A DNA stretch of 64,000 bases from Deltaproteobacteria bacterium (GCA_016219285.1 JACRNJ010000010.1:36089-100088); one strand, 5' to 3'. Shown: positions 3,465-64,000, counted from the stretch's first letter. Program-made: numbers and translations. Notes: generated by a model not told the origin, from the sequence alone.

Positions 3465-3547
3465 ATTTCAAATCCCAATTTGAAAAGCAAATATTTTTGG
3501 TATTTGGAATTTTGGTTATTATTTGAGATTTGCAATTTGATTTTTGG
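3428..3547. repeat. Long composite inverted heptamer-array hairpin
   Basis: aaatctcaaatctcaaattacaaattacaaata ... tatttgagatttgcaatttgattt. The left arm encodes the MsbA C-terminus (INLKSQITNYK). Confidence 0.65.
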
Positions 3548-5729: not shown

Positions 5730-5877
5730 AGGGCGATTTTTAGCTTGACACCTGAAAGCATGGCATTATAAATTGAGGTATATGGAAGAACAGGTTATAA
5801 ACTTGATTATTCCCTGTAGTCTTGCTGCAGGGTTACCACTAATCCCCTCCCATCAAGGGGTGGGGTGGGATTTTTAG

Positions 5878-6478
5878 ATGAGGATGGGAATGCAAACAAC
5901 TATTTCGCAGGTTGATTACAAAAAACAGTATACTTACGCTGATTACTTTGCCATCAACGATGACAAGAGATATGAGGTTATGGAGGGGCGTATTATGATG
6001 GTTCCTGCGCCAAATACCTTTCATCAGAGGATTTCCTCGGAAATAGGATATCTTTTCGTTAAATATGTAAAAGGAAACGACCTTGGGTCTGTTTTTCTTG
6101 CCCCGACTGATGTGGTTTTGAGCGATGACGTGGTTGTTCAGCCGGACATCCTGTTTATAAGCAAGGAAAAGGCCGGGATTATAGGGGAGCAAGCCATAAT
6201 GGGGGGCCCCGGACATTGTTGTCGAGATTATCTCTCCATCGTCGTCGTTTAATGATTCGGTAAGAAAGAGAGAGATTTATCAGAGGTTTGGCGTGAAAGA
6301 ATACTGGCTTGTCTTTCCGGAGGAGAAGGCCATAGAAATTATGTGTCTTGAGGCTTGTCCCCGCACGTCTGAAGCGGGGAACGGCATTTACAGGGAGCTT
6401 TGCTCGGCAAAAGAGCAAGGAACCGTAAGGTCTAAATTCCTTCAGGGGCTTGAGGTTGAGTTGAAAGGAGTGTTTTAG
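5878..6478 (+). pseudogene. Uma2-family (DUF820) endonuclease, frameshifted in a G6C4 run
   Basis: The first ORF carries YEVMEGRIMMVPAP...HQRI...QPDILFISK. After ggggggcccc (6201-6210) the expected continuation APDIVVEIISPSSSFNDSVRKREIYQRFGVKEYWLVFP is in another frame. Removing one G restores it. Confidence 0.75.
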
Positions 6479-6930: not shown

Positions 6931-7030
6931 AAAAACAAGGACAACGAAGTTTTTCCCTGTCTGTTGTAGTCAGGCAGTATATGGTTAAGAGAATAGTTTG
7001 CAAGGGAGTTCTGAAATGGTACGAATCCTG

Positions 7031-7079
7031 CAACTCAACTCAACTCAACTCAACTCAACTCAACTCAACTCAACTCAAC
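7031..7079. repeat. Pentanucleotide microsatellite (CAACT)n, about 9.8 units
   Basis: Perfect caact repeats read directly from 7031 to 7079. Intergenic, at the left edge of the GC-richer block. Confidence 0.95.
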
Positions 7080-7121
7080 AATAATCTCTTTTTTAAAAAT
7101 CTTAAAAATTTCGTTTATAAA

Positions 7122-7147
7122 GGCAGACTTCACGGTCTGCCTTTTTT
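7122..7147 (+). terminator. Rho-independent terminator-like hairpin
   Basis: ggcagac-ttcac-ggtctgcc followed by tttttt. Confidence 0.6.
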
Positions 7148-7254
7148 GTTTCTGCCGGTTCAGGTTTGCAAACCTGAACCACAACATTCCTGTCTGCGTG
7201 CCTGCCTGTGCTACGGCAGACAGGCGCAGAACTAAAATCAAGGAGAATAAGAAA

Positions 7255-14540: not shown

Positions 14541-14580
14541 GTAGAATCGTTGGGTTTCGCGCTGCGGAGCCGCAACCTAC
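14541..14580. repeat. GTAG...CTAC REP-like element (single unit)
   Basis: gtagaatcgttgggtttcgcgctgcggagccgcaacctac. GTAG at the 5' end, CTAC at the 3' end, imperfect internal palindrome. Confidence 0.5.
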
Positions 14581-14797
14581 CCCTCCCACCGCAAAAAGCA
14601 AGCATTCAGCAGGGTGTATGCCTGCGCGTCTGTAAACAAATTTTCCTCATAAAGACAATTCAATCATTCAGCCGTTATGCTGCTTCTATACGCCCGGATA
14701 AAACCGGCCAATACTCTCCTGTTGCATTGACAAGAGATGGTATGCTATAAAAATACAGTGAGTAGGTTGGGTTTGCTGACAAATAATGCCATCTTGA

Positions 14798-18191: not shown

Positions 18192-19517
18192 ATGATGAAA
18201 CGGAGAAGCGGAGATAGGGAGAATCGGAGAAAGGGAAAGTCTTTATTCCCCGCTTCCCCGCTTTCCCGCTTCTCCGGTTCACGGTTTTCTGTCCCCGGTT
18301 TTAAAGCTGCCGGTATTGCCTGTGGCATCAAGCATGTCCCCGCAGGCTTTAAGCAGGGAAAGAACGGCAATAAAGACCTTGCCATGATATATTCGGAGTC
18401 GGCTGCTGTTGCAGCAGCCGTGTTTACAAAAAATAAAGTAAAGGCAGCGCCTGTCTTGCTTGATATGCAGAGGCTCAAAAAAGGTTTGTGTCAGGCAATA
18501 ATTATAAACAGCGGAAATGCAAATGCCTGCACAGGCAAAAAAGGCATGGAAGATGCGGCGCGGATGGCTGCGACAGTTGAAGATGTGCTTGGAATAAAAA
18601 AGGGTTTTGTCATGGTTGCGTCAACAGGCGTTATTGGACAGAATCTTCCGATTGACAAGATAGAAAAGGGGATCTCAAAACTTGTTTCGTCTCTTTCAGC
18701 AAAAGGGTGGAATGATGCGGTTCATGCCATTATGACCACAGATGCCTTTCCTAAAGCTGTGTTTGAAAAATGCAGGCTCGGCGGAAAAGAGATTTCTGTT
18801 TTAGGCATTGCCAAAGGCGCGGGCATGATATGCCCGGACATGGCTACTATGCTGGCGTTTCTGGCAACTGATGCTGCAATAGAACAAAAGACTTTGCAAG
18901 CGATGTTGAAGTTATCGGTTGATAATTCGTTTAACTGCATTACTGTTGACGGAGATACATCTACGAATGATACTGTGCTGATACTTGCAAATGGAAAGGC
19001 CGGGAATAAAGAAGTCAGGAGCCAGAAGTCAGGAGTCAGGAGTAAAGACTATAAAACCTTTTCTGAGATGTTGGAAAGAGCCTGTTTGAAACTTGCAAAG
19101 ATGGTTGTCATGGACGGCGAAGGCTCGACAAAGCTGTTGAAGCTTCATGTGAGCGGCGCAAAGACAGATAGTGACGCAAAAAAGATTGCTGAGACTGTTG
19201 CAAATTCGCCGCTTGTGAAGACGGCATTTTTCGGGGAAGACGCAAATTGGGGAAGGATTATGGCGGCAATAGGCCGTTCAGGCGCGGATATGAAACAAGA
19301 AAAGATTAATGTGTATTTCAATAATGTGCCTGTTGTAATGAAGGGGCAGGGGGCAGCATGCAAGGGGCAAGATAGAGAAAAGATGGCTGCAAAGGCTGTG
19401 AAGCAAAAAGAGGTTTGTATAAGGATTGAACTGGGTATGGGCAGGGGGATTGCAACTGTCTGGGCAAGCGATCTGTCGTATGAATATGTTAGGATAAATG
19501 CAGCGTACAGAACGTAG
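18192..19517 (+). CDS. argJ: Bifunctional ornithine acetyltransferase / N-acetylglutamate synthase
   Basis: VPGFKAAGIACGIK near the N-terminus, autoprocessing-region ATMLAF/TDA pattern, C-terminal SYEYVRINAAYRT. Start placed at ATG 18192, because the ORF-track start at 18105 overlaps secA and is unlikely. Confidence 0.9.
   Translation: MMKRRSGDRENRRKGKSLFPASPLSRFSGSRFSVPGFKAAGIACGIKHVPAGFKQGKNGNKDLAMIYSESAAVAAAVFTKNKVKAAPVLLDMQRLKKGLCQAIIINSGNANACTGKKGMEDAARMAATVEDVLGIKKGFVMVASTGVIGQNLPIDKIEKGISKLVSSLSAKGWNDAVHAIMTTDAFPKAVFEKCRLGGKEISVLGIAKGAGMICPDMATMLAFLATDAAIEQKTLQAMLKLSVDNSFNCITVDGDTSTNDTVLILANGKAGNKEVRSQKSGVRSKDYKTFSEMLERACLKLAKMVVMDGEGSTKLLKLHVSGAKTDSDAKKIAETVANSPLVKTAFFGEDANWGRIMAAIGRSGADMKQEKINVYFNNVPVVMKGQGAACKGQDREKMAAKAVKQKEVCIRIELGMGRGIATVWASDLSYEYVRINAAYRT
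18201..18276. repeat. Inverted purine/pyrimidine-rich array hairpin at the argJ 5' end
   Basis: cggagaagcggagatagggagaatcggagaaagggaaag ... ttccccgcttccccgctttcccgcttctccg. A related arm occurs at about 50905-50935. Confidence 0.65.
18330..18359 (+). repeat. PAGFKQG hairpin element, copy b (in frame in argJ)
   Basis: aagcatgtccccgcaggctttaagcaggga. Differs at two positions from the sense strand of the lysA copy. Confidence 0.85.
19012..19045. repeat. GTCAGGA-type heptamer array inside argJ
   Basis: aagtcaggagccagaagtcaggagtcaggagtaa, translated EVRSQKSGVRSK. No obvious complementary arm nearby. Confidence 0.6.
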
Positions 19518-19566
19518 TTGCCCATTTATGGGTGTGTTTAAGAACGCCGATAAATCGGCAGGCTGC
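19514..19566 (+). repeat. GTAG...CTRC REPIN-like doublet
   Basis: GTAG-ttgcccatttatgggt ... cgccgataaatcggcagg-CTGC. The GTAG overlaps the argJ stop codon. Confidence 0.75.
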
Positions 19567-20006: not shown

Positions 20007-20079
20007 GTAGCTGCCGATTCATCGGCGTTTTCAAAAGCGCCCATGGGGCGCTCAACAGAAGGTTGGGTCGGGCAACTAC
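20007..20079 (-). repeat. GTAG...CTAC three-module REPIN-like element (inverse orientation relative to 34979-35055)
   Basis: GTAG-ctgccgattcatcggc-...-gcgcccatggggcgc-tcaacagaaggttgggtcgggcaa-CTAC. It is the reverse complement of the 34979-35055 element with a few substitutions. Confidence 0.8.
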
Positions 20080-20087
20080 AGCTAAAA

Positions 20088-20864
20088 ATGACAAATAGCC
20101 TGATGTATATCTTCAGCTTTATCTTCGGCTCTATTGTTGGCAGTTTCTTGAATGTCTGCATTTATCGTATTCCAGAAGACAAATCAATTATATTCCCTCC
20201 ATCATCATGTCCAAATTGCAATAAGCAAATTGCCTTCTACGATAATATTCCAATTATAAGCTATATTATTCTTCTAGGCAGATGCCGCAATTGTAAAAAT
20301 CCAATCTCACAGCGCTATCCTTTGGTAGAATTTTTAACAGGTTTTTTTTCCGTGATATTATTTAAGGCATTTGGTCTTTCAATAGAGATCCCAATCTACT
20401 TTGTCTTTGTATCAAGCCTCATTGTAATAACCTTTATAGACCTGCGATATCAGATAATACCGGATGTGATAACTCTTCCCGGCATTGCCGTTGGTTTTTT
20501 AGCTTCGTATTTTTTGCCGTACGGCATATTAAATTCCATGATTGGCATATTGGTTGGCGGCGGAAGCCTCTTGCTCGTGGCAGCTGGTTATCAACTTGTT
20601 ACAGGCAGAGAGGGTATGGGCGGTGGAGATATAAAAATGCTCGCAATGATAGGCGCATTTCTGGGATGGAAGGGTGTTATCATAACCATATTTACAGGCT
20701 CCTTTATCGGCGCTGTTGTCGGTTCTGCATTGATGCTGGCAAAAGGCAAGGATACTAAATATGCCATACCTTTTGGCCCTTTTCTTGCCGTTGGCGCAGT
20801 GGTCTCTCTTTTTTTTGGAGATGCTATTATAGATTGGTACATAATGGGTATATGGATGCGCTAA
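20088..20864 (+). CDS. pilD: Prepilin peptidase / N-methyltransferase (A24 family)
   Basis: Zinc-binding CPNC...CRNC pairs, catalytic-region GGGDIKML motif, multiple TM segments. Start moved to ATG 20088 because 20043-20087 is repeat sequence. Confidence 0.9.
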   Translation: MTNSLMYIFSFIFGSIVGSFLNVCIYRIPEDKSIIFPPSSCPNCNKQIAFYDNIPIISYIILLGRCRNCKNPISQRYPLVEFLTGFFSVILFKAFGLSIEIPIYFVFVSSLIVITFIDLRYQIIPDVITLPGIAVGFLASYFLPYGILNSMIGILVGGGSLLLVAAGYQLVTGREGMGGGDIKMLAMIGAFLGWKGVIITIFTGSFIGAVVGSALMLAKGKDTKYAIPFGPFLAVGAVVSLFFGDAIIDWYIMGIWMR

Positions 20865-21981: not shown

Positions 21982-21984
21982 GGA

Positions 21985-22066
21985 AAATGCAAAAATGAAA
22001 AATGAAAAATTAAAAATTAAAAATAAAAATTTGCAATCTAAAATTTGCAATTTGCAATTTGCAATT
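21985..22066. repeat. A-rich and ATTTGCA heptamer tandem arrays at the pilW 5' end
   Basis: aaaatgcaaaaatgaaaaatgaaaaattaaaaattaaaaat ... aatttgcaatttgcaatttgcaatt. Encodes the unusually long PilW leader. Confidence 0.6.
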
Positions 22067-23086
22067 AAACAACAAGGCTTTTCCCTCGTTGAACTTTTAG
22101 TTGCAATGGTTGTTGCTTCAATTGTGGGTATGGCAGGGTATGTTATATTTTCATCCAGCAGCTGGTCTTATAAGGTTCAGGAGGATGTCTCTGAGGTACA
22201 GCAGAATGTGCGGGTGGCGACTGACATGCTTGCAAAGGATATAAGATTAGCTGGTTTTGGCCTGCCTGACCCGCCTTTTTCACTTACCATAGGCAGTCAA
22301 ACTTTCACATCTCCTATAACCGTTACTAACAGCTCAACAGGGCCTGATACAATAACGGTAGTTGGTATTGGATTTGAGGCAGGAACGCTCCTTATAGGCG
22401 CTGCTACTGATTGTAATAACAGCGGAACGGGTAAGATATGCCTTGATAGTGTTGAGAGCGCTAATAATTTTTTTGGCTCTTCGCCTTCTTATGTTTATAA
22501 TACCGATAAAAAATATATAAGCCTTAACGGCACAACTTTTATAGAACTCTCTATCACACAAACCGAGAGGACATCTGCCAAACTAACATTAGAAACTCCA
22601 TCTGCCCTTGACATAAACTACCCTGACGGCACCACTGTCTATATTATCCAGGCGATTACCTATACAATAAATACCGCCCTAACCGGATGCTCAGCAACAA
22701 ATCCATGTCTTGCAAGGCAAGACCTTGCTGGCAATAATACAGTCTTTGCTTCAGGCATAGAAGACATCCAGTTTGCCTATGGCATAGATGAAAGTCCGAG
22801 GGATGGGAAGTTAGATGACACTGCGGATGGAACTGCTGGTTATGCGGCTACAGATTTCCTCAATGCCCCGACAGACCCTTCCAGCATAATAGCAGTGAAG
22901 GCAAATATAGTGGGAAAGACAAGGAATACAGATTCAAGAGGGGGAACATTTAGAAGGCAATGTCTGGAAGACCGTTCTGCTGATACGACAACATGCGGCA
23001 CAGCGCAGGCGCCTGTAACTGACGGCTACAGACGCAGGGCGCTTACAAAGATGATAAAACTCAGAAATCCAAGACAAGGGGCATAG
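21995..23086 (+). CDS. pilW: Type IV pilus assembly protein PilW
   Basis: QG/FSLVELLVAMVVASIVGMAGY prepilin-like segment. Size and operon position fit PilW. The true start is uncertain because the leader is repeat-encoded. Confidence 0.7.
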   Translation: MKNEKLKIKNKNLQSKICNLQFAIKQQGFSLVELLVAMVVASIVGMAGYVIFSSSSWSYKVQEDVSEVQQNVRVATDMLAKDIRLAGFGLPDPPFSLTIGSQTFTSPITVTNSSTGPDTITVVGIGFEAGTLLIGAATDCNNSGTGKICLDSVESANNFFGSSPSYVYNTDKKYISLNGTTFIELSITQTERTSAKLTLETPSALDINYPDGTTVYIIQAITYTINTALTGCSATNPCLARQDLAGNNTVFASGIEDIQFAYGIDESPRDGKLDDTADGTAGYAATDFLNAPTDPSSIIAVKANIVGKTRNTDSRGGTFRRQCLEDRSADTTTCGTAQAPVTDGYRRRALTKMIKLRNPRQGA

Positions 23087-28653: not shown

Positions 28654-28678
28654 CTGGGTCAGGGGTCAGACTTACTTA
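28654..28678 (-). repeat. Inverted copy of the 26-nt RAYT-flanking repeat
   Basis: ctgggtcaggggtcagacttactta is the reverse complement (23 of 25) of the unit repeated at 29652-29729. Confidence 0.8.
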
Positions 28679-28713
28679 TTGACAATATTATTGTCTTTTG
28701 TTACTTTGCTCTT

Positions 28714-29658
28714 ATGGCAAGGAAACCAAGGATAGAATTTAATGGGGCGTTCTATCATGTCATTACTCGCGGCAACCAACAGCAAAAGACATTCAAAGAA
28801 CGGAATGACTTTCAAAAATACATGGAAATCTTGTCAAGCTATAAACAAAAATACAACTTTCTTGTTTACGCCTATATTCTTATGAGCAACCATGTGCATT
28901 TGCTAATAGAAACCGCGCAAACGCCGCTATCCAAGATACTTCAAGGAATAAACCAAAGCTACACCATGTATTTTAACAGGAAATACAAAACATCAGGGCA
29001 TCTTTTTCAGGGAAGATATAAAGCAATCCTGTGTGATAGAGATGAATACCTGTTGGTACTGATAAAATATATCCATCACAATCCTGTAAGGGCGAAAATA
29101 GTGGAGAGGCCTGACGAATATGAGTGGAGCAGTTACCGGCATTATGTCCAAAGACAAGAACAGGCAGGCATCGTAGATACAGACCATGTTCTCAGGATGT
29201 TTTCAGAGGATAAAACAACAGCCAGAAAGCTTTTTAGGGCGTATATATCTGAAAGGGCAGGCATGGGCGGAGATGAGATATACCGGACTGTTGACCAGCG
29301 TATATTGGGCGATGAAGAATTCATAGAAAAGGTGAAAGAAAAAAGCAATGGCAATATAAATAGTGGTAAAAGACCCTGGCAATACAGCCTGAATACTATC
29401 ATGGGGGTGATAGAGATAGCATACGGGGTTTCATTGAAAGAAATCCGCAGTTCGGGCAAGGATAGAGCCTTGACAAAAGCGAAAACAGTTTTAAGCCTGG
29501 TTGCCGGAGAATACGGATATAAAAACAAGGAGATAGCGGATTTTATACAAAAAGACCCTGTAGTTATAACAAGACATTTAAAGGAAAGGGCTAATTTACA
29601 GAAAGATATGGAGAAGGTTATGGGGCTATTGAATGGAAAACTAATTGTCAATAAGTAA
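28714..29658 (+). CDS. REP-associated tyrosine transposase (RAYT; IS200-like Y1/HUH transposase) with DnaA-C-like HTH tail
   Basis: 314 aa. FYHVITRGN, HUH motif SNHVHLLI, catalytic Tyr region YIHHNPVRA. The C-terminal SSGKDRALTKAKTVLSLVAGEYGYKNKEIADFI..DPVVITRHL resembles DnaA domain IV. Confidence 0.85.
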   Translation: MARKPRIEFNGAFYHVITRGNQQQKTFKERNDFQKYMEILSSYKQKYNFLVYAYILMSNHVHLLIETAQTPLSKILQGINQSYTMYFNRKYKTSGHLFQGRYKAILCDRDEYLLVLIKYIHHNPVRAKIVERPDEYEWSSYRHYVQRQEQAGIVDTDHVLRMFSEDKTTARKLFRAYISERAGMGGDEIYRTVDQRILGDEEFIEKVKEKSNGNINSGKRPWQYSLNTIMGVIEIAYGVSLKEIRSSGKDRALTKAKTVLSLVAGEYGYKNKEIADFIQKDPVVITRHLKERANLQKDMEKVMGLLNGKLIVNK

Positions 29659-29729
29659 GTCTGACCCCTGCCCCACCTAAGTAAGTCTGACCCCTGCCCC
29701 ACCTAAGTAAGTCTGACCCCTGCCCCACC
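29652..29729 (+). repeat. Tandem 26-nt repeat x3 (taagtaagtctgacccctgccccacc)
   Basis: Three perfect head-to-tail copies. The first overlaps the RAYT stop codon. Confidence 0.95.
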
Positions 29730-29869
29730 TTGGGGTTCTTTACAGCCGTAAGGGGTTTATGGATAAGGCAATTAATGCATTCTCTGAGGCATTACGGATT
29801 AAACCTTACGACACTGAGGCTCAGGAAGGTTTGAAAAAGGCATTGTATTTCAAACAGATCCAGAGGTAG
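29729..29869 (+). pseudogene. 3' remnant of a TPR-protein gene (TMTC-like paralogue?)
   Basis: Open frame LGVLYSRKGFMDKAINAFSEALRIKPYDTEAQEGLKKALYFKQIQR* with no 5' part. Resembles the C-terminus of the next gene (YARKGLFEEAIKNYANALKIAPDD). Confidence 0.55.
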
Positions 29870-34380: not shown

Positions 34381-34977
34381 ATGACCCTTAGTGTGTTGAT
34401 ATATCTATCCCAAAGGTGTTTTAAGACGTTGGTGCTATGCATAATTCTATTTGCGGGCCTCTCGGTTGGGTTTACACCTGTTTTTGGCATGGATATAACA
34501 AAAGTACGGACAATTGCAGGCAAGCTGGAACAATTGACAGGCCAGAATATTAAAATTGTAGTAGAAAACTCCATTAAACCAGATGCATACCTTCACCCAA
34601 TGGGATATATAGTTATAACCAGTGGTCTGATGAGATTTTTTGAAGATGATGCGGAAATGGTTTTTATAATAGGCCATGAATGGGCGCATGTTATAAAAGG
34701 GCATTATAAAGACGAGCAAGATATCCTGGGTATTTCAAAGAATATATCCAACCCTGATAAATTAAAAGCAGATAAACTTAAAAAAGAGATGGATGCTGAT
34801 GCCTATGGGCTGGGTGTTATGAAGGCTCTTGGTTATGACTCTGCAGCCTCTCTTAAGGTGTTAGCCAAATTGCGTCAGGTAATGGGCCAAAATGGAATGG
34901 AGGGATATTCATCTATAGAAGAAAGGATGAATATCTTGAATGGACTGCTGAACTATAGTGGAGGACAAAATAAGTAG
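34381..34977 (+). CDS. Small HExxH metallopeptidase (M48-like)
   Basis: 198 aa, N-terminal hydrophobic segment, FIIGHEWAHVIKGHY zinc-binding motif. Confidence 0.6.
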   Translation: MTLSVLIYLSQRCFKTLVLCIILFAGLSVGFTPVFGMDITKVRTIAGKLEQLTGQNIKIVVENSIKPDAYLHPMGYIVITSGLMRFFEDDAEMVFIIGHEWAHVIKGHYKDEQDILGISKNISNPDKLKADKLKKEMDADAYGLGVMKALGYDSAASLKVLAKLRQVMGQNGMEGYSSIEERMNILNGLLNYSGGQNK

Positions 34978-34978
34978 A

Positions 34979-35055
34979 TGTGGTTTGCCCGACCCAACCT
35001 TCTGTTGGGCGCCCCATGGGCGTATTTTAAAATAGCCGATAAATCGGCAGACTAC
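34979..35055 (+). repeat. Three-module REPIN-like element (GTGG...CTAC)
   Basis: tgtggtttgcccgacccaaccttctgttgggcgccccatgggcg...gccgataaatcggcagactac. Starts right after the M48-like stop codon, which itself lies in a GTAG. Confidence 0.8.
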
Positions 35056-35135
35056 AAATTTATGTCGCCGACTATATTTTGAATTGAAGGCAATAGGGAA
35101 GGAGCCGTAGGGCGGCCCCTTCCCTATCCATTTGA

Positions 35136-35916: not shown

Positions 35917-36306
35917 ATGAAGAGAAAGGCACATTACTCTGCAGAAAATAAATGTGTAGGGCTTTTGAGAAGGCTTCGGTGGCCCAGCGGGGTGAAATGC
36001 CCCAGATGTGATGGAGAGCATATTATAGGGGTTGGGCAGATGAGAACCTTTCCGGAACATAAACGTTATTACTGCTCCGGGTGTAGATATACCTTTTCCG
36101 ATACATCAATGACCCTGTTTCACGGCAGCAGGCTGCCTCTCAGCAAGTGGTTTGACGCTATCATCCTTGGGGCAAACGGCTCGTCAGCCATGGGTATTAA
36201 AAAAGAACTGCATATTACCTATAAGGCGGCATGGAGGATAAAGCATCTTATGGGTGAGGATTATCTTGTTCATGAGATAAGGCGAAGGTTGTTAAGAAAG
36301 GGTTAA
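35917..36306 (+). CDS. IS1595-family transposase N-terminal region only (zinc ribbon + HTH), no catalytic domain
   Basis: 129 aa. LRWPSGVKCPRCDG...YYCSGCRYTFSDTSMTLFHGSRLPLSKWF is the IS1595/ISXO2-like N-terminal pattern, and the DDE part is absent. The stop codon lies in the target duplication of the adjacent MITE. Confidence 0.6.
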   Translation: MKRKAHYSAENKCVGLLRRLRWPSGVKCPRCDGEHIIGVGQMRTFPEHKRYYCSGCRYTFSDTSMTLFHGSRLPLSKWFDAIILGANGSSAMGIKKELHITYKAAWRIKHLMGEDYLVHEIRRRLLRKG

Positions 36307-36392
36307 ACCCCGTTAGAAGCTAGCCTATAAAAAAACTGTTTGCTTCCAACAAGGACTTGTCTGTGGGAGGAAAAGTTTCTAACGGGGTTAAA
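36303..36392. mobile_element. 80-nt MITE with 14-bp TIRs, flanked by TTAAA direct repeats (intergenic copy)
   Basis: ttaaa-CCCCGTTAGAAGCT...AGTTTCTAACGGGG-ttaaa. Core 36308-36387. Confidence 0.8.
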
Positions 36393-36424
36393 TATAAAAG
36401 AAGGAGGTGAAATAATTATTTTCA

Positions 36425-36490
36425 TTTACGATTTACGAATTACGATTTAAGATTTTAAATTCCTCAATCTGAAATCGTAAATCTCAAATC
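36425..36490. repeat. Inverted heptamer-array hairpin (TACGATT-type) upstream of nirS
   Basis: tttacgatttacgaattacgatttaag ... ctgaaatcgtaaatctcaaatc. Confidence 0.65.
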
Positions 36491-36510
36491 ACAATAAGGA
36501 GGTTAAACAG

Positions 36511-38786: not shown

Positions 38787-38788
38787 AT

Positions 38789-38843
38789 ACAGACTACAGA
38801 TTGCAGACTACAGACTGAAGTTTCTATAGTCTGTAGTCTGTGG
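38789..38843. repeat. Inverted heptamer-array hairpin (CAGACTA-type)
   Basis: acagactacagattgcagactacagactg ... tagtctgtagtctgtgg. Confidence 0.7.
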
Positions 38844-38861: not shown

Positions 38862-40385
38862 ATGAAGAAAAATTTTACTCTTATTGCTGCATTTATAATC
38901 TTTACAACCGGTCTTGCAATGGCTGATGATGGCAAAGGACTTTATATGAAACACTGCGCATCCTGCCACCATGTTGAAAGATATGGCCTAAAGGCCCCGG
39001 CCTTAATACCGGAAACCTTGAAGGCATATAAAAATGAGGAGCTTGCAAAGATTATAAAAGAGGGTCTTCCGGCAAGCCAGATGCCGCCGTTTAAAGAACT
39101 TTTGGCAGACGGCGATATTGATAAAATCATATCTTACATAACCCTGCCTCTGAGCAATGCCAGATGGACAAAGGAAGATATTGTAAAAAGCAGAGAGGTT
39201 TTTACAGAACCTGCGCATCAAAAACCAATATCCAATCTTGACTATGAAAATATCACACTGGTTGTAGAAAGCAGCAGAAGCATAACAGTTATGGATGGCA
39301 ATAATTTTAAATCATTAGATAAATTTCAGGCAGGGGCCATTCACGGCGGACCTAAATTCTCTTATTCGCTCCGTTACATATATGCCCCGACAAGGGACGG
39401 CGTAATAACAAAATACGACCTTTATACATTGAAAAAAATTGGAAGCGTAAAAACTGGCATAAATACGAGAAACATAGCCATCTCTGATGATGATAAATGG
39501 GTGGCTGCAGCCAACTACTTGCCCAGTAATATTGTATTTTTAAATGATGAATTAACCCCAACTTATGTTTTAGAAACCTCAGGAAAGATAGGAGGGATAT
39601 ACACTCTGATTTCAGAAAAAAAGTTTGTATGCGCTTTTAGGGATGTGCCAAATCTATGGCTCATAAATTATACAAAGGGTTTTGAAATAGAAAGTCTTGC
39701 CCTGCCTGAGCCATTTGAAGATATATCAATAAATCCATTTGAAGACATTATTATCGGCTCTTCAAGAAAAGGGACCAGAATTTATATTTACAGTTTAAAA
39801 CAAAGAAGGGTTGTAAACAACTTTGAAACAGACGGTATGCCGCACCTTGCCTCAGCCACATACTGGGTTGACCCCGTTAGAAGCTCGCCTATTGATAAGC
39901 AGTCTACTCTCAATACAAACTTGTCTCCGATTGAGAAAGCTTCTAACGGGGTTGACAAGGGTGTGCTTTACACCGCTATAAATCACCTGAAGAGGCCTGT
40001 TTTAACTATTCTGGATTTGAATAGCGGGAAGGTAGTTAAGGAGATTAGTCTTAATGGGGCAGGTTTTTTTGTAAGGACGCATCAGAATACGCCGTTTATC
40101 TGGGTTGATACAAATACAGATGCAATCCAGATTATAGACAAAGCCGCACTTCAGGTTGTAAAAACGCTTGTTCCATCAAAGGGTAAAAAGGCTATGCACA
40201 TTGAATTCACAAAGGACGGAAGATATGCAATGGCCAGCATTTATGAGGAAGAAGGATCCCTTGTAATCTATGATGCGGTTACCCTGACTGAGATAATGAG
40301 AATACCGCTCAGGAAACCTGCCGGCAAATATAATGCGTTGAACAAAACATATCCAAAGATACAGGCAAGAGGCGATGGGCTATAG
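38862..40385 (+). CDS. nirN: NirN-like heme d1 maturation protein (c-type heme domain + cd1 beta-propeller)
   Basis: 507 aa. Signal peptide, CASCHH heme c site, propeller domain homologous to the NirS d1 domain. Position between nirS and nirJ. Carries the 84-bp MITE insertion. Confidence 0.7.
   Translation: MKKNFTLIAAFIIFTTGLAMADDGKGLYMKHCASCHHVERYGLKAPALIPETLKAYKNEELAKIIKEGLPASQMPPFKELLADGDIDKIISYITLPLSNARWTKEDIVKSREVFTEPAHQKPISNLDYENITLVVESSRSITVMDGNNFKSLDKFQAGAIHGGPKFSYSLRYIYAPTRDGVITKYDLYTLKKIGSVKTGINTRNIAISDDDKWVAAANYLPSNIVFLNDELTPTYVLETSGKIGGIYTLISEKKFVCAFRDVPNLWLINYTKGFEIESLALPEPFEDISINPFEDIIIGSSRKGTRIYIYSLKQRRVVNNFETDGMPHLASATYWVDPVRSSPIDKQSTLNTNLSPIEKASNGVDKGVLYTAINHLKRPVLTILDLNSGKVVKEISLNGAGFFVRTHQNTPFIWVDTNTDAIQIIDKAALQVVKTLVPSKGKKAMHIEFTKDGRYAMASIYEEEGSLVIYDAVTLTEIMRIPLRKPAGKYNALNKTYPKIQARGDGL
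39868..39955. mobile_element. Same 80-nt MITE, in-frame copy inside nirN, flanked by TTGA direct repeats
   Basis: ttga-CCCCGTTAGAAGCT...AGCTTCTAACGGGG-ttga. Core 39872-39951. 80 + 4 = 84 nt = 28 codons, translated PVRSSPIDKQSTLNTNLSPIEKASNGVD. Confidence 0.8.
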
Positions 40386-40467
40386 GCAAGGGGTAAATAG
40401 TCGATTGTCGATTTTCGATTGTCGAATTTAAAATCGTAAATCGTAAATCAAAAAACGAGGTTTATCT

Positions 40468-41715: not shown

Positions 41716-43006
41716 AAAAAATATTCAAGGTAGTTGCCGATTTATCGGCGTTTTTAAACCTGTCCCCGCAGGCTTTAAGCGTGGATACGCCCATAAATGG
41801 GCAGCTACAATTTTATTTGCATGTTTTAGCCTTTTAATATTCTCAAAGGCCATAGCATTTGCCGCAGACAAGGATGCTTACGGCACTGCCTCTTTAATGG
41901 TGATTGTTGAAAGAGAGGCAGGAAGTGTGATTGTTATTGATTCTTCAAGGCATAAATTATTAGGCCGGATTTCGAATCTTGGCAATCTCATACATGCTAC
42001 CGTCAAGTTTTCAAAGGATGCAAGGTTCGCCTATGTGATAGGCAGGGATGCATCCGTAAGCAAGATAGACCTGTTGAAATTAAAACTTGTGAAAAAGGTG
42101 AGGGCAGGGGATGACTCTGTAGGCGGCGTAATGACTCAGGACGGCAAATATGTCGCCCTAAGCAACTATGTGCCGGGCGAGGTCAGAATACTTGATGCGG
42201 AGACATTGGAAACAGTAAAGATAATTCCGGCAGAGAGAGAGTATCCTGACGGCAAAAAAATAGCGGCAAGGGTTGTCGGCCTGGTGGATGCGCCTGGAAA
42301 TCTCCTTGTATTTTCAATGATGGATAATGACGGAATATGGGTTGTAGATGCAGGCAAAAAGGATTTTCCAGTAACAAAGAAATTCTGGGATATTGGCGAA
42401 ACTCCCTATGACGGGCTTATAACCCCTGACGGCAGATATTATATCTCAGGCCTTTTAAACTCCAATTGGGTTGGACTTCTGGATATTTGGGATATGACAG
42501 AGGTTAAAAGGATTTCAACTATAAAGACGAAAGATGCGAGGGGGACAGGAGAAGATATTGTCCCTTTGTGGAAGATACCGCATCTAAAAGGATGGGCTAT
42601 TGCAGGCGATTACGCAGTGATTCCTGCTATTAAGAGAGAGGTGGCATTGGTTTACAATATAAGGGATTGGAGCATAATAAAGGAAGTGCCTCTGGTTGGC
42701 ACTGCGCTCTATACAGTTGCAGGCCCTGATGGAAGATATGTGTGGGTTGATTTGGTCGGAAAGAACGGAGACACAATTCAGGTTATAGACCTTAAAACCC
42801 TTGAGGTTGTAAAAACCTTTTCGCCGGGTAAAGGCGCAACCCATCCCCAGTTTACGCCAAAAGGCGATGCGGTTTATATATCGTTGATGGATGAATACAA
42901 GGTGGTGGTTTATAATCCGGTTACTTTTGAAAAGATAACAGAATTTCCGGCGGAAAAACCGTCAGGCATATTTTCAACAGAAAGGGCGCATAAGTTTGGC
43001 ATGTAA
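41699..43006 (+). CDS. nirF: NirF-like cd1 beta-propeller protein without heme c
   Basis: 435 aa. Signal-like segment AATILFACFSLLIFSKAIAFA, propeller homologous to the NirS/NirN d1 domains, no CxxCH. The N-terminal ~35 residues are encoded by a composite repeat element. Confidence 0.7.
   Translation: MQKLYKKNIQGSCRFIGVFKPVPAGFKRGYAHKWAATILFACFSLLIFSKAIAFAADKDAYGTASLMVIVEREAGSVIVIDSSRHKLLGRISNLGNLIHATVKFSKDARFAYVIGRDASVSKIDLLKLKLVKKVRAGDDSVGGVMTQDGKYVALSNYVPGEVRILDAETLETVKIIPAEREYPDGKKIAARVVGLVDAPGNLLVFSMMDNDGIWVVDAGKKDFPVTKKFWDIGETPYDGLITPDGRYYISGLLNSNWVGLLDIWDMTEVKRISTIKTKDARGTGEDIVPLWKIPHLKGWAIAGDYAVIPAIKREVALVYNIRDWSIIKEVPLVGTALYTVAGPDGRYVWVDLVGKNGDTIQVIDLKTLEVVKTFSPGKGATHPQFTPKGDAVYISLMDEYKVVVYNPVTFEKITEFPAEKPSGIFSTERAHKFGM
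41730..41808 (+). repeat. GTAG...CTAC composite element carrying a PAGFK hairpin module, inside the nirF 5' coding region
   Basis: GTAG-ttgccgatttatcggc-gtttttaaa-cctgtccccgcaggctttaagcgtgga-tacgcccataaatgggcag-CTAC. Confidence 0.8.
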
Positions 43007-43969: not shown

Positions 43970-44050
43970 GTAGCTTGCCCATCCCCGCTAAAAATCTGCG
44001 GGAACATGTTTATGGGCATATTTAAAAGCGCCGATAAATCGGCCGACTAC
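43970..44050 (+). repeat. GTAG...CTAC doublet whose first hairpin loop is interrupted by a PAGFK-type hairpin (antisense)
   Basis: GTAG-cttgcccat[ccccgctaaaaatctgcgggaacatg]tttatgggc...gccgataaatcggccga-CTAC. Confidence 0.75.
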
Positions 44051-47343: not shown

Positions 47344-48078
47344 CTATATTCCCTCTATTTTATCTTTACTATCTATTTTTATCCCTCTTTTTCTCATAGT
47401 ATCCTTTATAACCTTAAGTTTCCAATCCCTGTGGTTATTTATTATTGATAAAACCTCTTTTGGTTTATCGGTTATTTTGACAAGCTCCATATCCTCTGCT
47501 GATATGGTTTTGCTCTTCAACATTGTTGTCTTCATCCAATGGAGCAGGCCGCTCCAATAATCCTTTCCAACAAGAATCAAAGGCAATGGATATATCTTGT
47601 GGGTTTGGATAAGCGTGAGCGCTTCAAAGAACTCATCAAGGGTCCCAAACCCGCCAGGCATACAGACATAGCCCATAGCATATTTTATAAACATCACCTT
47701 TCTGGCGAAGAAGTATTTAAATGTCAAAGATTTGTTCTGAAACGGATTAGGTTTTTGTTCTTTTGGCAAAAGTATATTTAAACCTACAGAGGCGCCGTCA
47801 TTGGTTATAGCGCCTTTGTTGGCTGCCTCCATGACACCAGGCCCCCCGCCAGTTATAATGGTATACCCGTTTTTTACAAGAAGAGTGGAAATTTCCAGAG
47901 TCTGTTTATAATATTTATGATTTCTATGAAATCTTGCTGAACCGAATATGGATACAGCCGGTCCTAGTGTTGAGAGCTCTTCAAAACCCTCCACAAATTC
48001 ACTTATTATCTTGAATATGCGCCATGTTTCCTGACCCTTCAAATCCTCAACCATGTTTCCGGAAAACTCAAATCCCAA
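47344..48078 (-). CDS. LOG-family (TIGR00730) nucleotide phosphoribohydrolase
   Basis: PGGFGTLDEFFE and GGGPGVMEAAN motifs. The first residues overlap a repeat hairpin, so the start may be the downstream ATG (MVEDLKG). Confidence 0.85.
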   Translation of the reverse strand: MGFEFSGNMVEDLKGQETWRIFKIISEFVEGFEELSTLGPAVSIFGSARFHRNHKYYKQTLEISTLLVKNGYTIITGGGPGVMEAANKGAITNDGASVGLNILLPKEQKPNPFQNKSLTFKYFFARKVMFIKYAMGYVCMPGGFGTLDEFFEALTLIQTHKIYPLPLILVGKDYWSGLLHWMKTTMLKSKTISAEDMELVKITDKPKEVLSIINNHRDWKLKVIKDTMRKRGIKIDSKDKIEGI

Positions 48079-48219
48079 ATTACAAATCCCAAATAATAAT
48101 TAATTATTCAATAAACAAAGCTTGAAGCAGCATGGTTATTGAAATTTGATTATTGGCTATTATTTGTTATTTGATATTTGTTTATTGAAATTTTCATCCC
48201 CCTTTCTATCATATATATT

Positions 48220-53222: not shown

Positions 53223-53315
53223 GTAGTTTGCCGATTTACCTGTCTGCGTGCAACGCACAGGCAGGCGCACAGGCAGGTCGGCGCTTTTAAAGACGTCCAT
53301 AAATGGGCAAGCTAC
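53223..53315 (+). repeat. GTAG...CTAC doublet whose first hairpin is interrupted by a CCTGTCTGC...GCAGGCAGG hairpin
   Basis: GTAG-tttgccgattta[cctgtctgcgtgcaacgcacaggcaggcgcacaggcagg]tcggc...tccataaatgggcaag-CTAC. Confidence 0.75.
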
Positions 53316-54463: not shown

Positions 54464-54728
54464 AGATATCCTCCAAAATTATGGGGTGTGGAAAAATCCT
54501 TTACTGCCGCCTGCTTCCCACATCCGTAGTATTTAAAAAGACTATCAAAACAAGGTGAGAAAGTCATTAAGAATTTTCAACTTCCTTTTTACTATTTCTT
54601 TTACAGATGGCATAATAATGATGACAGCATTTTAAGGTTGAACTGCGATATTTAATTTGTTAAATTTGGATAGTGTAAAAACCAACATGAATTGTAGTCT
54701 GCCGATTTAATAAAAAAGGAGAACCAAT

Positions 54729-55077: not shown

Positions 55078-55134
55078 GTAGCCTGCCCATTTTATGGGCG
55101 CATTGTTACAAACGCCGATAAATCGGCAAACTAC
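55078..55134 (+). repeat. GTAG...CTAC REPIN-like doublet (cleanest copy)
   Basis: GTAG-cctgcccattttatgggcg-cattgttacaaa-cgccgataaatcggcaaa-CTAC. Confidence 0.85.
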
Positions 55135-56160: not shown

Positions 56161-58176
56161 TATGGTTGGATCAGGAATAAATGCTGGCCGCCACTCATTG
56201 ATTTCCAGATGGCGGCGGATTTCCTGCTCAAATCCTTCTGGTATATCGTAATATGTCCTGATAAAGAGATTTATATCAGCAGGCAACGGTTCTTTTTTAC
56301 CCGCGCAAAGCTCTATATAGTTTTTTAATTTTATTTTCCTGCCTTCTGTCGTGTCGTTAGGCCTGATACAGAGTTTAGCTGCAAGAGGCAGGGCTTGCTC
56401 AATAGTTTCAGCAAAACATAAAAGGTGTTGCGGCGCAGGGCCTGTTGGGACTATATCCCCGAGTCTCGTATCCTTTACCTGCCAGAGTCTATCCTGCCCG
56501 ATAAGGTGAATACCATAGTTTTTGAACATCGGCCCGAAGATAACAGGGATGCCGAGCCTTGCCATACCCAGCGCAGAAGAGAATGCCTTCTGCGTGAATG
56601 CGCCCCAGAGTATTACTACTGCGCCAACCCTGTTTATTATATAGTCTGCAATTTCTTTGTAATTATTCTCCGGTTTTCTGTGGCACATTATCTGGGCGAT
56701 TTTTATGCAGGCCCCGATAAGATGAGAAGCAGATACACATGAACCAAGATTTGTTAGGTTTCTGCTGTCAAAAGAGTCAGGATTGTCTTTGAACAAATCT
56801 CCTTTTGCAACATCCATTGAGGCACAGCCGCCAGTGGAAACAATATATCCCCTATTTAGAAATTCTCGGGCAAACATATTAGCAATTGAATCTTCTGGCT
56901 TCTGACTTCTGACTTCTGACTTCTGACTTGCCTCCGGACATCCAAATATCCCTACAATTCCGGGAATCTCACCCATCACAATAGACGGCGCAACTCCCCT
57001 TATTTCACCATCTCGTATAGGGCCGCGGCCAATCCGTAAAAAAGAGTTCGGGGTTCGGAGTTCGGAGTTCGGAGTTTTACTGCCTGCTGCCCCCTGCTTA
57101 AAGCCTGCAGGGGCAGGCCCCTGCCCACTGCCTACTAACTTCAATGCTGCCTCTGCTGCCTTTTTCTTATCCAGAATAATACCCGTCCCATTCTTCAAAA
57201 TATATTCTGACGACTTGTCCAACGGCATGTCCGTTAAATCTCTAAGTCCAAGCGCCGTCTCTTGTGTTGTTGCAATAAGCATACTATTAACCTTACCCGC
57301 CTCGGCAACCACATCCGGCCTTATGCACTGTGTGTCCATAATAACAACATCCGCAATGCCTGATTTAATAACATCCAATTGCATAGCCTGATTGCCTATT
57401 ACCTTAAAACCATGACTATGCCTCGCTGAATCTGATGCTGCACAGCACAGGCCGCAGACCTCCACCTTATCCTTAATACCTCTACTTTCAAGAAGGTGCA
57501 TAATTTCATGGGCAACAGATGAGTTGTGACCAATTATAAGTATTACAGGCTTTGATGTATCAACAGTTTCTAATCCGATAGCTATTATTGGCGAATTGGA
57601 TTCGCCCTTTGGCATGTTCATGGCAGATATCTGCGCAATGTCTGCCACTTCCATGGCAAGGTTATCCAGCATACCTGCATGAAGCGTCTTGCTTACAAAA
57701 TCATCAGGGGATGCCTCTGTGCCGAAGTTTATGGAGGAGAGGAGGTGATTTAACTGGCCTTCTATATAGGTAAGAATATTTCTCAACTCACCCATGTTTT
57801 TTGGCTTACAGCCTGTTATAAGCGTTGTGATTGGAGTTGCTATAGCGGTATGCAGGCCGGTATCTACACGACACTCTTTATCGAACCTGTCTATTAAGTT
57901 TTCTATAAGTCTTACAGCGTGAGATGTATGACCCGATGTTCCTATAACAGCATCTAATAAAATCTCTCTTGCCTTGAAACCAGTTTCATCAATGCCGCAT
58001 TTTCCAACCCCCCCTCCCCCCCCCTTTGTTAAATGGGGGGCAGGGGGGGTTGGCCTGCACGGCCCCATGGCACACAGGTGGCAGGCCTTATTAGACTTTG
58101 AAAATATTGGCAGGTATCTTTCAAGCAGGGTTAAATCCCAGTCTCTTAAATCAAATATATCTAAATATGGTTTCAT
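56155..58176 (-). CDS. Ni-CODH (CooS)-like protein, prismane/CODH family, carrying several repeat-derived in-frame inserts
   Basis: 673 aa. The following line up with CooS B- and C-cluster regions: C-x2-C-x4-C (CHLCAMGPCR) then KCG, GTSGHTSHA, IIGHNSS, CGLCCAA, MDTQCIRPD, GGCASMD, LGSCVSA. Enzyme specificity not established. Confidence 0.55.
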   Translation of the reverse strand: MKPYLDIFDLRDWDLTLLERYLPIFSKSNKACHLCAMGPCRPTPPAPHLTKGGGGGVGKCGIDETGFKAREILLDAVIGTSGHTSHAVRLIENLIDRFDKECRVDTGLHTAIATPITTLITGCKPKNMGELRNILTYIEGQLNHLLSSINFGTEASPDDFVSKTLHAGMLDNLAMEVADIAQISAMNMPKGESNSPIIAIGLETVDTSKPVILIIGHNSSVAHEIMHLLESRGIKDKVEVCGLCCAASDSARHSHGFKVIGNQAMQLDVIKSGIADVVIMDTQCIRPDVVAEAGKVNSMLIATTQETALGLRDLTDMPLDKSSEYILKNGTGIILDKKKAAEAALKLVGSGQGPAPAGFKQGAAGSKTPNSELRTPNSFLRIGRGPIRDGEIRGVAPSIVMGEIPGIVGIFGCPEASQKSEVRSQKPEDSIANMFAREFLNRGYIVSTGGCASMDVAKGDLFKDNPDSFDSRNLTNLGSCVSASHLIGACIKIAQIMCHRKPENNYKEIADYIINRVGAVVILWGAFTQKAFSSALGMARLGIPVIFGPMFKNYGIHLIGQDRLWQVKDTRLGDIVPTGPAPQHLLCFAETIEQALPLAAKLCIRPNDTTEGRKIKLKNYIELCAGKKEPLPADINLFIRTYYDIPEGFEQEIRRHLEINEWRPAFIPDPTIL
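56892..56930. repeat. (TTCTGAC)n heptamer array inside the CooS-like gene
   Basis: cttctgacttctgacttctgacttctgactt. Sense-strand translation SQKSEVRSQKPE. Confidence 0.8.
57044..57078. repeat. (GTTCGGR)n heptamer array inside the CooS-like gene
   Basis: gagttcggggttcggagttcggagttcggagtttt. Sense translation KTPNSELRTPNS. Confidence 0.8.
57089..57119 (-). repeat. PAGFKQG hairpin element, copy e (in frame in the CooS-like gene)
   Basis: The reverse complement is ggcctgcccctgcaggctttaagcagggggc, identical to the secA copy. Confidence 0.85.
58004..58053. repeat. C-run/G-run hairpin in frame in the CooS-like gene
   Basis: ccaaccccccctccccccccctttgttaaatggggggcagggggggttgg. Sense translation PTPPAPHLTKGGGGGVG, located between the CxxCxxxxC motif and the next Cys. 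Confidence 0.7.
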
Positions 58177-61109: not shown

Positions 61110-61331
61110 CTACTTTATCCATGCCGTCTCCTGCGGCGGCTTTGGCGGCGCCTTTTTGCCGCAACCTATAACTAGAGTGAACAGTGAAAAGTGAAGAGTG
61201 AATAGTAATAAAAATATTAAATACTTTGTAGTCTGCTGATTTATCAGCGATTTTAAATACGCCCAATGAATTGGGCAACTACACTCCTGACCTTTTAACT
61301 CTCTGCCACTTTGACTCTTTGACACTTTCAT
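61110..61331 (-). CDS. Putative small lipoprotein (LptM/YifL-like), start uncertain
   Basis: Lipobox VIGCGKK followed by a Pro-rich tail, in the usual position between argH and lysA. Most of the upstream ORF is repeat sequence. Confidence 0.4.
61228..61282 (+). repeat. GTAG...CTAC REPIN-like doublet (variant hairpins)
   Basis: GTAG-tctgctgatttatcagcg-attttaaatac-gcccaatgaattgggcaa-CTAC, itself enclosed by heptamer-array arms. Confidence 0.8.
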
Positions 61332-63978: not shown

Positions 63979-64000
63979 GTAGTTGCCCGACCCAACCTTC
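63979..64000 (+). repeat. Start of another three-module GTAG element, truncated by the window end
   Basis: gtagttgcccgacccaaccttc matches the first 22 nt of the 34979-35055 type. Confidence 0.6.

Follow-up and report, generated by a model that had tools for sequence, protein, structure and literature searches.

REPs tagged with the tetranucleotide GTAG have been reported from more than 80 species in eight phyla, according to a survey that also describes HH dimers, heterodimers with different stems, conserved spacers and REPs within genes (PMC3733652). REPtrons, and RAYTs with unrelated inverted-repeat flanks, are described in the same survey. TnpA-REP recognises the folded single-stranded REP together with its GTAG and cleaves beside it (PMC8266576).

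The window is the whole 64-kb stretch of DNA that was analysed; its G+C content is 43.5%. The relatives that match it best, all uncultured, are groundwater MAGs labelled 'Deltaproteobacteria bacterium', whose argJ proteins are at most 80% identical. It contains secA, argJ, a HEPN gene, a prepilin peptidase gene, genes for nirS-like cytochrome d1 proteins, a V-type ATPase and a CODH-like protein, and amino-acid biosynthesis genes. Dispersed through its intergenic regions are short hairpin doublets that begin with GTAG and end with CTAC. These doublets are very probably REPINs, or GTAG-REP 'HH heterodimers': the gene-less, non-autonomous form of a REPtron with a 137-aa RAYT-type Y1/HUH transposase.

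The family has ten members in the window: eight full GTAG...CTAC doublets, one stub and one copy truncated by the window edge. The initial annotation of the window gave coordinates and described sequences that match the DNA, but its count of at least eleven copies is one too high; 14541-14580 drops out because, despite its GTAG/CTAC ends, it lacks all of the hairpin modules. Of the module strings given there, GCGCCCCATGGGCGC has no exact match in the window; the real strings in its place are GCGCCCCATGGGCG at 35009 and GCGCCCATGGGGCGC at 20037. All ten members are intergenic and none is found within 1-19.5 kb. Six copies are co-oriented with transcription and three are anti-oriented. Lack of enrichment had been named as grounds for abandoning the repeat family; instead, the core motif GCCSATWWATSGGC has six exact matches in the window against 0.01 expected by chance, and 12 matches with up to two mismatches against 2.9 expected.

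An arm profile (GTAG, linker and hairpin) was trained on 202 arms from elsewhere and run on the whole window; significant arms are confined to family sites. Both arms are significant at 19514-19566, 41730-41808, 43970-44050, 53223-53315 and 55078-55134. A single canonical arm is found at 20007-20079, 34979-35055 and 61228-61282, where the partner arm is composite or variant and is read by eye. The 17-nt stub at 54693-54709 is also recovered by the profile; the copy at 63979-64000 is recognised through its repeat pair with the 20007 copy, not through the profile. The copies are fairly decayed or interrupted, and none fits the strict two-arm pattern used for genome scanning; the window doublets may be old. 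An Rfam search of the window at gathering thresholds returns tRNA only, with no match to a doublet.

An oriented arm has the form T-GTAG-(1-3 nt)-GCC[C/G]AT-TT-AT[G/C]GGC-G, and paired arms are inverted with their tags outward; this holds for 84 unique doublets. GTAG is invariant across the arm alignment. Almost always, one arm carries the stem GCCCAT-TT-ATGGGC and the other GCCGAT-TT-ATCGGC (6 bp, TT loop), so that the CAT and GAT hairpins differ by one compensated pair, C:G versus G:C. The search pattern permitted every combination of arms; 64 of the 84 unique doublets are heterotypic (CAT plus GAT) and seven are homotypic. In the lineage of the window the spacer is approximately G(T/C)TTTTAAAA(G/A)C. 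The flanks of the doublets are unrelated save for a T at -1 (64/72) and an A at +1 (55/72). A REP is defined as a short palindrome (20-50 nt) with a conserved tetranucleotide in front of it, in most cases GTAG, and the arms have this form. The doublets also have the features of REP dimers: intergenic copies in the window above chance, inverted pairs with short spacers, and compensatory stem change.

The stems co-vary, both inside lineages and from one lineage to another. In a set of 168 arms gathered without a stem-pairing requirement, intra-arm pairing is complete in 159; pairing from arm to arm is mostly 3/4 because of the swapped pair. Paired cells make up 94.3% of the stem alignment, compared with 73% in shuffles and 29-49% in slid-partner controls. 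There are 48 double-change cells against 14.6 in shuffles; the observed value is reached by none of 500 shuffles, and both-sided changes occur at five of seven pairs. As single-stranded DNA, the doublets are predicted to fold either into one long imperfect hairpin or into two hairpins closed by a GTAG/CTAC stem, with z from -1.7 to -4.3.

The doublet at 55078-55134 (+ strand) is near-canonical. It consists of GTAG-CC-TGCCCATTTTATGGGC, a 14-nt spacer and GCCGATAAATCGGCA-AA-CTAC (predicted ssDNA fold, z = -3.3), and is located 17 nt past the stop of a CMD-family gene and 40 nt ahead of an arsenosugar-type radical-SAM gene. At 19514-19566 (+), a CAT arm is followed by a GAT arm, with arm E-values of 0.006 and 1e-5; the right tag is degenerate (CTGC, 19563-19566). 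The argJ ORF ends at 19517, and its stop codon, 19515-19517, is the TAG of this element's GTAG, as the initial annotation had noticed. The variant doublet at 61228-61282 (-) consists of GTAG-TC-TGCTGATTTATCAGC, which has a compensated stem, a spacer and GCCCAATGAATTGGGCA-A-CTAC; it is predicted to form two hairpins and a closing stem (z = -4.3). Its right arm is identical to REPs which flank a RAYT in a Zixibacteria MAG (L237). The stub at 54693-54709 (+, E=0.0017) is TGTAG-TC-TGCCGATTTA and corresponds to the initial 17 nt of a GAT arm.

The remaining copies are interrupted. The doublet at 41730-41808 (-) has a GAT arm, a spacer and a CAT arm; a 28-nt hairpin element of the D7 family (41759-41786) lies within the spacer. 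At 43970-44050 (+) the GAT arm is intact and the CAT hairpin is split, its loop being interrupted by a 26-nt D7-family element in reverse orientation (43983-44008); the split halves are matched separately by the profile. At 53223-53315 (-), which is also found by the profile, the CAT arm has one mismatch (GTCCAT), and a 39-nt hairpin (53239-53277), which contains a 12-nt x2 repeat, is inserted in the loop of the GAT hairpin and splits it.

Three copies (20007, 34979 and 63979) share a 25-nt hairpin, GACCCAACCTTCTGTTGGGCGCCCC, in place of the CAT loop; this indicates that the composite spread as a unit after gaining the insert. The 20007-20079 copy (-) is a reversed doublet, with a GAT arm (loop TC), a spacer and a composite CAT arm that holds the insert (CCCAAC..GTTGGG); the profile finds the left arm only, and the copy is 92% complementary to 34985-35032 (repeat pair I1). 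The 34979-35055 copy (+) has a composite CAT arm, identified by eye, with the insert at 34991-35015 and a degenerate left tag (GTGG, 34980-34983), followed by a GAT arm (right arm E=7e-7). The 63979-64000 copy (+) is the left end of a composite-arm doublet cut by the window edge, and is 90% complementary to 20058-20088 (repeat pair I18).

The two- and three-hairpin architecture had been thought unusual. Other small repeats nested in the doublets explain it, and REP heterodimers are already known (PMC3733652). The modular look is explained by 25-40-nt hairpin elements in loops and spacers and by the location of one doublet inside a larger MITE. The D7 family is a 27-nt hairpin repeat, ccTGTCCCCGCAGGCTTTAAGCRGGG, with eight copies in the window (6356, 18040, 18335, 20881, 41761, 43983, 57092 and 59460); two of these are inside doublets, in the spacer of 41730 and the CAT loop of 43970. 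D7 repeats are also found within genes. The copy at 18040 is an in-frame nine-codon insertion in the C-terminal linker of secA; the L002 ortholog shares this insertion and the L001 ortholog lacks it; the copies at 57092 and 59460 lie within CODH-like and DAP-decarboxylase-like ORFs.

The MITE at 34954-35075 (~122 nt) has inverted ends TATAGTGG.. and encloses the 34979 doublet. The stop codon of the M48-like gene does lie in a GTAG (34974-34977), as had been observed; this tag, however, belongs to the enclosing MITE and not to the doublet. The MITE supplies the final eight codons of the M48-like ORF (34381-34977), including the stop. Copies of the MITE are ~103-122 nt long with inverted ends TATAGTGGACGACAAAAATAAG.. 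and ..GTCGCTGACTATA; besides the window copy, there are about ten copies in MGRL01 loci and one in an Ignavibacteriae MAG (L084, L098, L105, L107, L127, L132, L134, L163, L169 and L114), and the window copy was aligned with those of MGRL01 loci and L114. The Ignavibacteriae copy is 92-97% identical to the Deltaproteobacteria copies, which reflects either transfer or a binning error. The MITE end resembles the Neisseria Correia repeat (tatagtggattaacaaaaatcaggacaa).

Small hairpin modules of this kind can be compared with the small dispersed repeats (SDRs) of Nostoc and the palindromic elements of Rickettsia. The likeness concerns the nested modules only: 25-40-nt hairpins found in other repeats, beside heptamer arrays and in frame in genes. 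The host lineage and the sequences are different.

The strict two-arm pattern was scanned over 185,579 species genomes (596 Gb) and matches 89 loci; from the information content of the pattern, chance matches are estimated at ~0.005. The hosts include several Deltaproteobacteria MAGs, chiefly MGRL01 (the RIFCSPHIGHO2_02_FULL_43_33 genome), together with Doudnabacteria, Saccharibacteria, Kerfeldbacteria, Daviesbacteria, Firestonebacteria, Elusimicrobia and an Ignavibacteriae MAG. GTAG...CTAC ends are nearly universal among these loci. The CPR copies are without the T-rich spacer. A scan of viral contigs for the doublet gives no matches, and hence no sign of a phage vector.

The initial annotation proposed a search for RAYT genes flanked by exactly these modules, and such genes are present in other genomes. 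In at least eight loci from several phyla, a 137-aa Y1 (HUH) transposase is encoded between GTAG-..-GCCCATTTATGGGC and GCCGATAAATCGGC-..-CTAC arms; the hosts are Doudnabacteria, Kerfeldbacteria, Saccharibacteria, a gammaproteobacterial MAG and two Deltaproteobacteria-type contigs. The RAYT is directly flanked by matching REPs in L139, L180, L184, L176, L186, L194, L196 and L233. In intact REPtrons (L139, L180, L184, L176, L186 and L179) the gene has a CAT arm on its 5' side and a GAT arm on its 3' side. In the Doudnabacteria locus L139 the 137-aa ORF occupies the spacer exactly: GTAG-CG-TGCCCATTTATGGGCG, 15 nt, ATG...TAA, 6 nt, CGCCGATAAATCGGCA-CG-CTAC. Variants in which same-type arms or full doublets flank the RAYT are found in L175, L187, L188 and L154. 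A third master outside CPR is L196, whose host is a diderm organism that has an outer-membrane protein of the FadL type. In other genomes, the RAYT stop codon is itself supplied by the doublet.

The 137-aa protein scores 27.8 bits with Pfam Y1_Tnp (cut-off 23) and 74.4 bits with the NCBIfam model REP_Tyr_transpos, just under the equivalog cut-off of 80; the IS200 model gives 18.3. Its sole real PDB match is 4ER8, E. coli TnpA-REP (E=1.8e-7), with which its HUH motif (MPNHIH) and catalytic tyrosine (IREYI) align. Relatives of the protein are labelled 'REP element-mobilizing transposase RayT' by JGI. The window itself contains no RAYT of the 137-aa type in a tblastn search.

In four Doudnabacteria-type genomes, RAYTs of 72-84% identity lie between the same two neighbours; fixed neighbours despite this divergence point to vertical descent there. 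Deltaproteobacteria-type and CPR RAYTs are only 50-57% identical, while their arms are identical. Further members of the RAYT clade come from Brocadiales, Nitrospirae, Zixibacteria, WOR-3 and Omnitrophota. At the loci examined in the first three of these groups, the REPs on either side of the related RAYTs carry GTAG and have the same design, but their stems have co-varied (GCCTGATTTATCAGGC + GCCCCATAAATGGGGC; GCCCGATTCATCGGGC; GCTCGATTCATCGAGC + GCCCAATGAATTGGGC), and GCCCAATGAATTGGGC is identical to the 61262 arm of the window. Most non-CPR matches to an 'arm + ATG + YDY' pattern are due to chance.

A second RAYT type was considered as the cognate enzyme and rejected. It is encoded at 5477-5938 of locus L143, in a Deltaproteobacteria MAG which also has GTAG doublets; this 153-aa protein scores 119 bits with REP_Tyr_transpos, above the NCBIfam cut-off. 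Its flanking hairpins, GGCGGGGTTTTCTAACCCCGCC and GGCGGGACAGGAATGTCCCACC, differ from the doublet arms and are not repeated in the window.

On two metagenome contigs, L194 and L233, the RAYT is accompanied by linkers and T-rich spacers that are typical for the Deltaproteobacteria copies. At L194, which adjoins tRNA-tig-clpP-clpX, 15 arms surround the RAYT within 1.25 kb; the ClpX encoded there shows 90-93% identity to 'Deltaproteobacteria bacterium' MAG proteins at NCBI. In the relative L227, whose ClpX is 91% identical to that of L194, there are no arms in 13 kb, and no RAYT is called in the orthologous region. The L233 RAYT is 71% identical to that of L194 and has a 745-aa gene on one side and pgi on the other. 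In MGRL01 (L106), the orthologous junction has a 42-nt doublet only, without the gene; in both L233 and L106, the stop codon of the upstream gene is the TAG of GTAG. Such a pair of sites, one with and one without the gene, is directly expected if doublets are gene-less REPtrons. The scanned species-representative genomes of the closest lineage (MGRL01, MGPS01, JACRML01 and others) show no master copy, and a lineage-specific full-length pattern has no matches in metagenomes.

A comparison of synteny with close relatives had also been proposed, and all three orthologous sites tested (in L001, L002 and L096) are without a doublet. The argJ/HEPN (19514) and HEPN/pilD (20007) junctions of L001 and L002 hold other hairpins, namely heptamer arrays and palindromes. 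L096 lacks any spacer at the CMD/radical-SAM junction, the site of the 55078 copy in the window. The initial annotation raised the possibility that the copies belong to a conserved structured RNA family with compensatory substitutions. Compensatory changes do occur; the mixed orientation, the three orthologous sites without a doublet and the absence of any Rfam match nevertheless point away from such a family.

The identification of the doublets as Y1-associated REPINs, first proposed from the window alone, is supported by their enrichment, the presence of a RAYT between the same arms in other genomes, covariation, dispersal in both orientations and the three orthologous sites in relatives that have no doublet. 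Based on the biochemistry of TnpA-REP from E. coli, S. maltophilia and Marinomonas and of IS200/IS605, each arm would fold on single-stranded DNA. By the same analogy, the RAYT would bind the hairpin and its 5' GTAG, and would cleave beside it through a covalent 5'-phosphotyrosine link; strand transfer could then move or copy the whole doublet to a new site. Copying of whole doublets is supported by the composite sub-family, in which one extra insert is shared by three window copies. On this reading the apparent modules are later insertions of other 25-40-nt hairpin repeats into the single-stranded loops and spacer, and one doublet was captured by a larger MITE.

Secondary effects on the host, themselves putative, are likely. 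Doublets just downstream of genes can donate stop codons. The arms of this lineage resemble weak terminators because of the T-rich palindromic spacer (GTTTTTAAAA); two arms, 41735+ and 44047-, are called terminator-like owing to the GTTTTTAAA spacer, and their stems are short.

Three other explanations can be weighed against this one. The two ends of the element are systematically different, as are the left and right ends of IS200/IS605; identical arms occur across CPR, Deltaproteobacteria-type contigs and a gammaproteobacterial MAG, and the 72% identity between the RAYTs of L186 (from the gammaproteobacterial MAG) and L176 (Kerfeldbacteria) suggests transfer. These features would suit a minimal IS200-like IS of ~480 bp (left-end hairpin, tnpA, right-end hairpin), with the doublets as its horizontally spread, MITE-type deletion derivatives rather than products of a domesticated, vertically inherited RAYT/REPIN system. 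This is unlikely, since the protein scores 74 bits on the REP-transposase model and only 18 on IS200, every arm has the GTAG tag which distinguishes REPs (PMC8266576), the constant neighbours in the four Doudnabacteria-type genomes point to vertical descent, and the scans find gene-less doublets at 89 loci against seven full copies. Selection for function at the 3' ends of genes could also generate similar sequences if the doublets served the host mainly as regulatory hairpins, for instance by terminating transcription from both sides or by stabilising mRNA. Seven of the ten copies do lie within ~120 nt downstream of a stop codon, the stems co-vary, the GTTTTTAAAA spacer provides a T-run after each hairpin with terminator-like calls for two arms, and orthologous junctions in relatives hold other hairpins at the same places. 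However, the stems are only 6 bp, the CPR copies have no T-rich spacer, some copies (54693 and 63979) are upstream of genes, and the transposase link and the L233/L106 pair account for the origin of the doublets without invoking function. A primarily regulatory identity is very improbable; a regulatory role is possible as a secondary one.

The window also encodes its own Y1 transposase, the only Y1 enzyme so far seen in this genome, which might in principle mobilise the doublets here in place of the 137-aa RAYT. The ORF (28714-29658) specifies 314 aa, with an N-terminal Y1_Tnp domain (60 bits) and a C-terminal extension of ~170 aa; it scores 75.7 bits with REP_Tyr_transpos (cut-off 80). Its involvement is scarcely credible. 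The protein belongs to a different clade, with 22% identity to the L194 RAYT over the core; its gene is 5.3 kb from the nearest doublet, and instead of GTAG arms the flanks carry an unrelated pair of 32-nt inverted repeats (97% complementary, at 28655-28686 and 29644-29675) and, after the ORF, three perfect tandem copies of a 26-nt unit (29652-29730). It looks like a RAYT with unrelated inverted-repeat flanks. These flanks also hold GGGTCAG heptamers, similar to some of the dispersed heptamer arrays described below.

Several other repeats are found in the window. Short period-7 tandem arrays occur at about 25 sites, with a different heptamer at each site; examples are located at 432-503, 3431-3546, 5270-5342, 21984-22069, 36424-36494, 38788-38841, 40400-40449, 48069-48193, 56892-56929 and 61176-61206. 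Several are inverted pairs across an intergenic region (for example TACAGAC/TCTGTAG and GTCGATT/AAATCGT), and relatives have heptamer arrays at junctions where the window has GTAG doublets. The arrays are reminiscent of the heptamer repeats of cyanobacteria. They prompted the idea that the window is cyanobacterial, which was dropped: both its genes and its relatives are of deltaproteobacterial type. An 83-nt element is present in two copies, 36307-36389 and 39871-39953, which are 73% identical and have perfectly complementary ends (ACCCCGTTAGAAGC...GCTTCTAACGGGGT). Each copy follows a gene of the cytochrome-d1 cluster and is predicted to fold into a long hairpin (z = -4.1 and -5.4); the 36307 copy comes after ORF 35917-36306, which has an IS1595-type transposase zinc-ribbon domain. 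At 7031-7079, in or beside a small ORF (6981-7235), there is a perfect pentanucleotide array, CAACT x 9.8, which could be a slippage-prone tract. The 40-mer at 14541-14580, bounded by GTAG...CTAC, is GTAGAATCGTTGGGTTTCGCGCTGCGGAGCCGCAACCTAC; ~80 nt downstream of it, 14657-14758 is 93% identical to L001, an unusual conservation for an apparently non-coding stretch.

REP/RAYT systems have been studied mainly in gamma-proteobacteria; the REPIN reading extends them to uncultured Deltaproteobacteria, CPR/Patescibacteria, Brocadiales, Nitrospirae and Zixibacteria. It also offers a compact model, consisting of a 137-aa enzyme and two 14-nt hairpins that are one swapped base pair apart. The swapped pair is convenient for asking how a Y1 transposase distinguishes the left end from the right. 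For annotation, it is relevant that doublets provide stop codons (for argJ in the window, for the RAYT elsewhere) and that they mislead ORF callers, as with the ATG at 20043 inside an element; they probably also break metagenome assemblies.

A wider interpretation is conceivable but doubtful. The 137-aa RAYT and its CAT/GAT pair would be one old REPtron lineage common to ultra-small CPR/Patescibacteria and diderm groundwater bacteria, with recognition sites frozen to the nucleotide; this would imply either exchange between episymbionts and their neighbours or very strong protein-DNA co-constraint. In the genome of the window, hairpin mini-elements of 25-40 nt, for example those of the 27-nt D7 family, would form a second tier, able to enter the loops of REPs and also, in frame, genes like secA. 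If this is true, these mini-elements are among the smallest mobile DNAs known.

The doublets are an ordinary, explainable repeat family and not a new kind of system. The family itself, its hosts and the very small RAYT are new here; otherwise, the scheme is as already described. A literature search with the exact hairpin strings returns one irrelevant primer match and no relevant paper, and no paper was found that links RAYT or REPIN with CPR.

IS200/IS605 elements and their MITE-like derivatives share with this family a transposase of the Y1/HUH type, sub-terminal hairpins that are not alike at the left and right ends, and gene-less derivatives; the 4-nt motif 5' of each hairpin is at the position of their 'guide' sequence. 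They differ in that their ends are recognised on one strand, whereas the GTAG tags here are on opposite strands, and in that the protein matches the REP-transposase model (74 bits) much better than the IS200 model (18 bits).

In the REPIN-RAYT systems of Pseudomonas and Enterobacteria (Bertels and Rainey 2011, PMC3116915; TnpA-REP groups 2 and 3, PMC8266576), two inverted REPs are likewise copied as a unit, and the RAYT is flanked by REPs and kept at a fixed locus in related genomes. Short perfect palindromes are shared with TnpA-REP group 3 (PMC8266576). The present family differs in that the two arms are not identical, so that the one-hairpin fold has a C.C and a G.G mismatch, and in that exact arms are common to several phyla with RAYTs that are only ~50-57% identical.

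The closest known system is that of the GTAG REPs and HH heterodimers, as described by Di Nocera et al. (2013, PMC3733652), together with the E. coli BIMEs with y/z REPs and the SMAGs of S. maltophilia. Those GTAG REPs have a terminal GTAG outside a short perfect stem-loop with a 2-nt loop, and the GTAG-1/2 families have few unpaired nucleotides between tag and stem, as do the arms described here. Inverted pairs with outward tags, a conserved short spacer and partners that differ in the stem are also common to both, as are location downstream of genes, clusters around a RAYT gene, and sub-families with complementary stem changes. The hairpin sequences of the doublets are absent from the main text of that paper, in which the hosts are mostly gamma and alpha Proteobacteria; in contrast, the present family is found in uncultured Deltaproteobacteria, CPR/Patescibacteria and other candidate phyla, and its RAYT, at ~137 aa, is very short compared with the systems presented there (PMC3733652).
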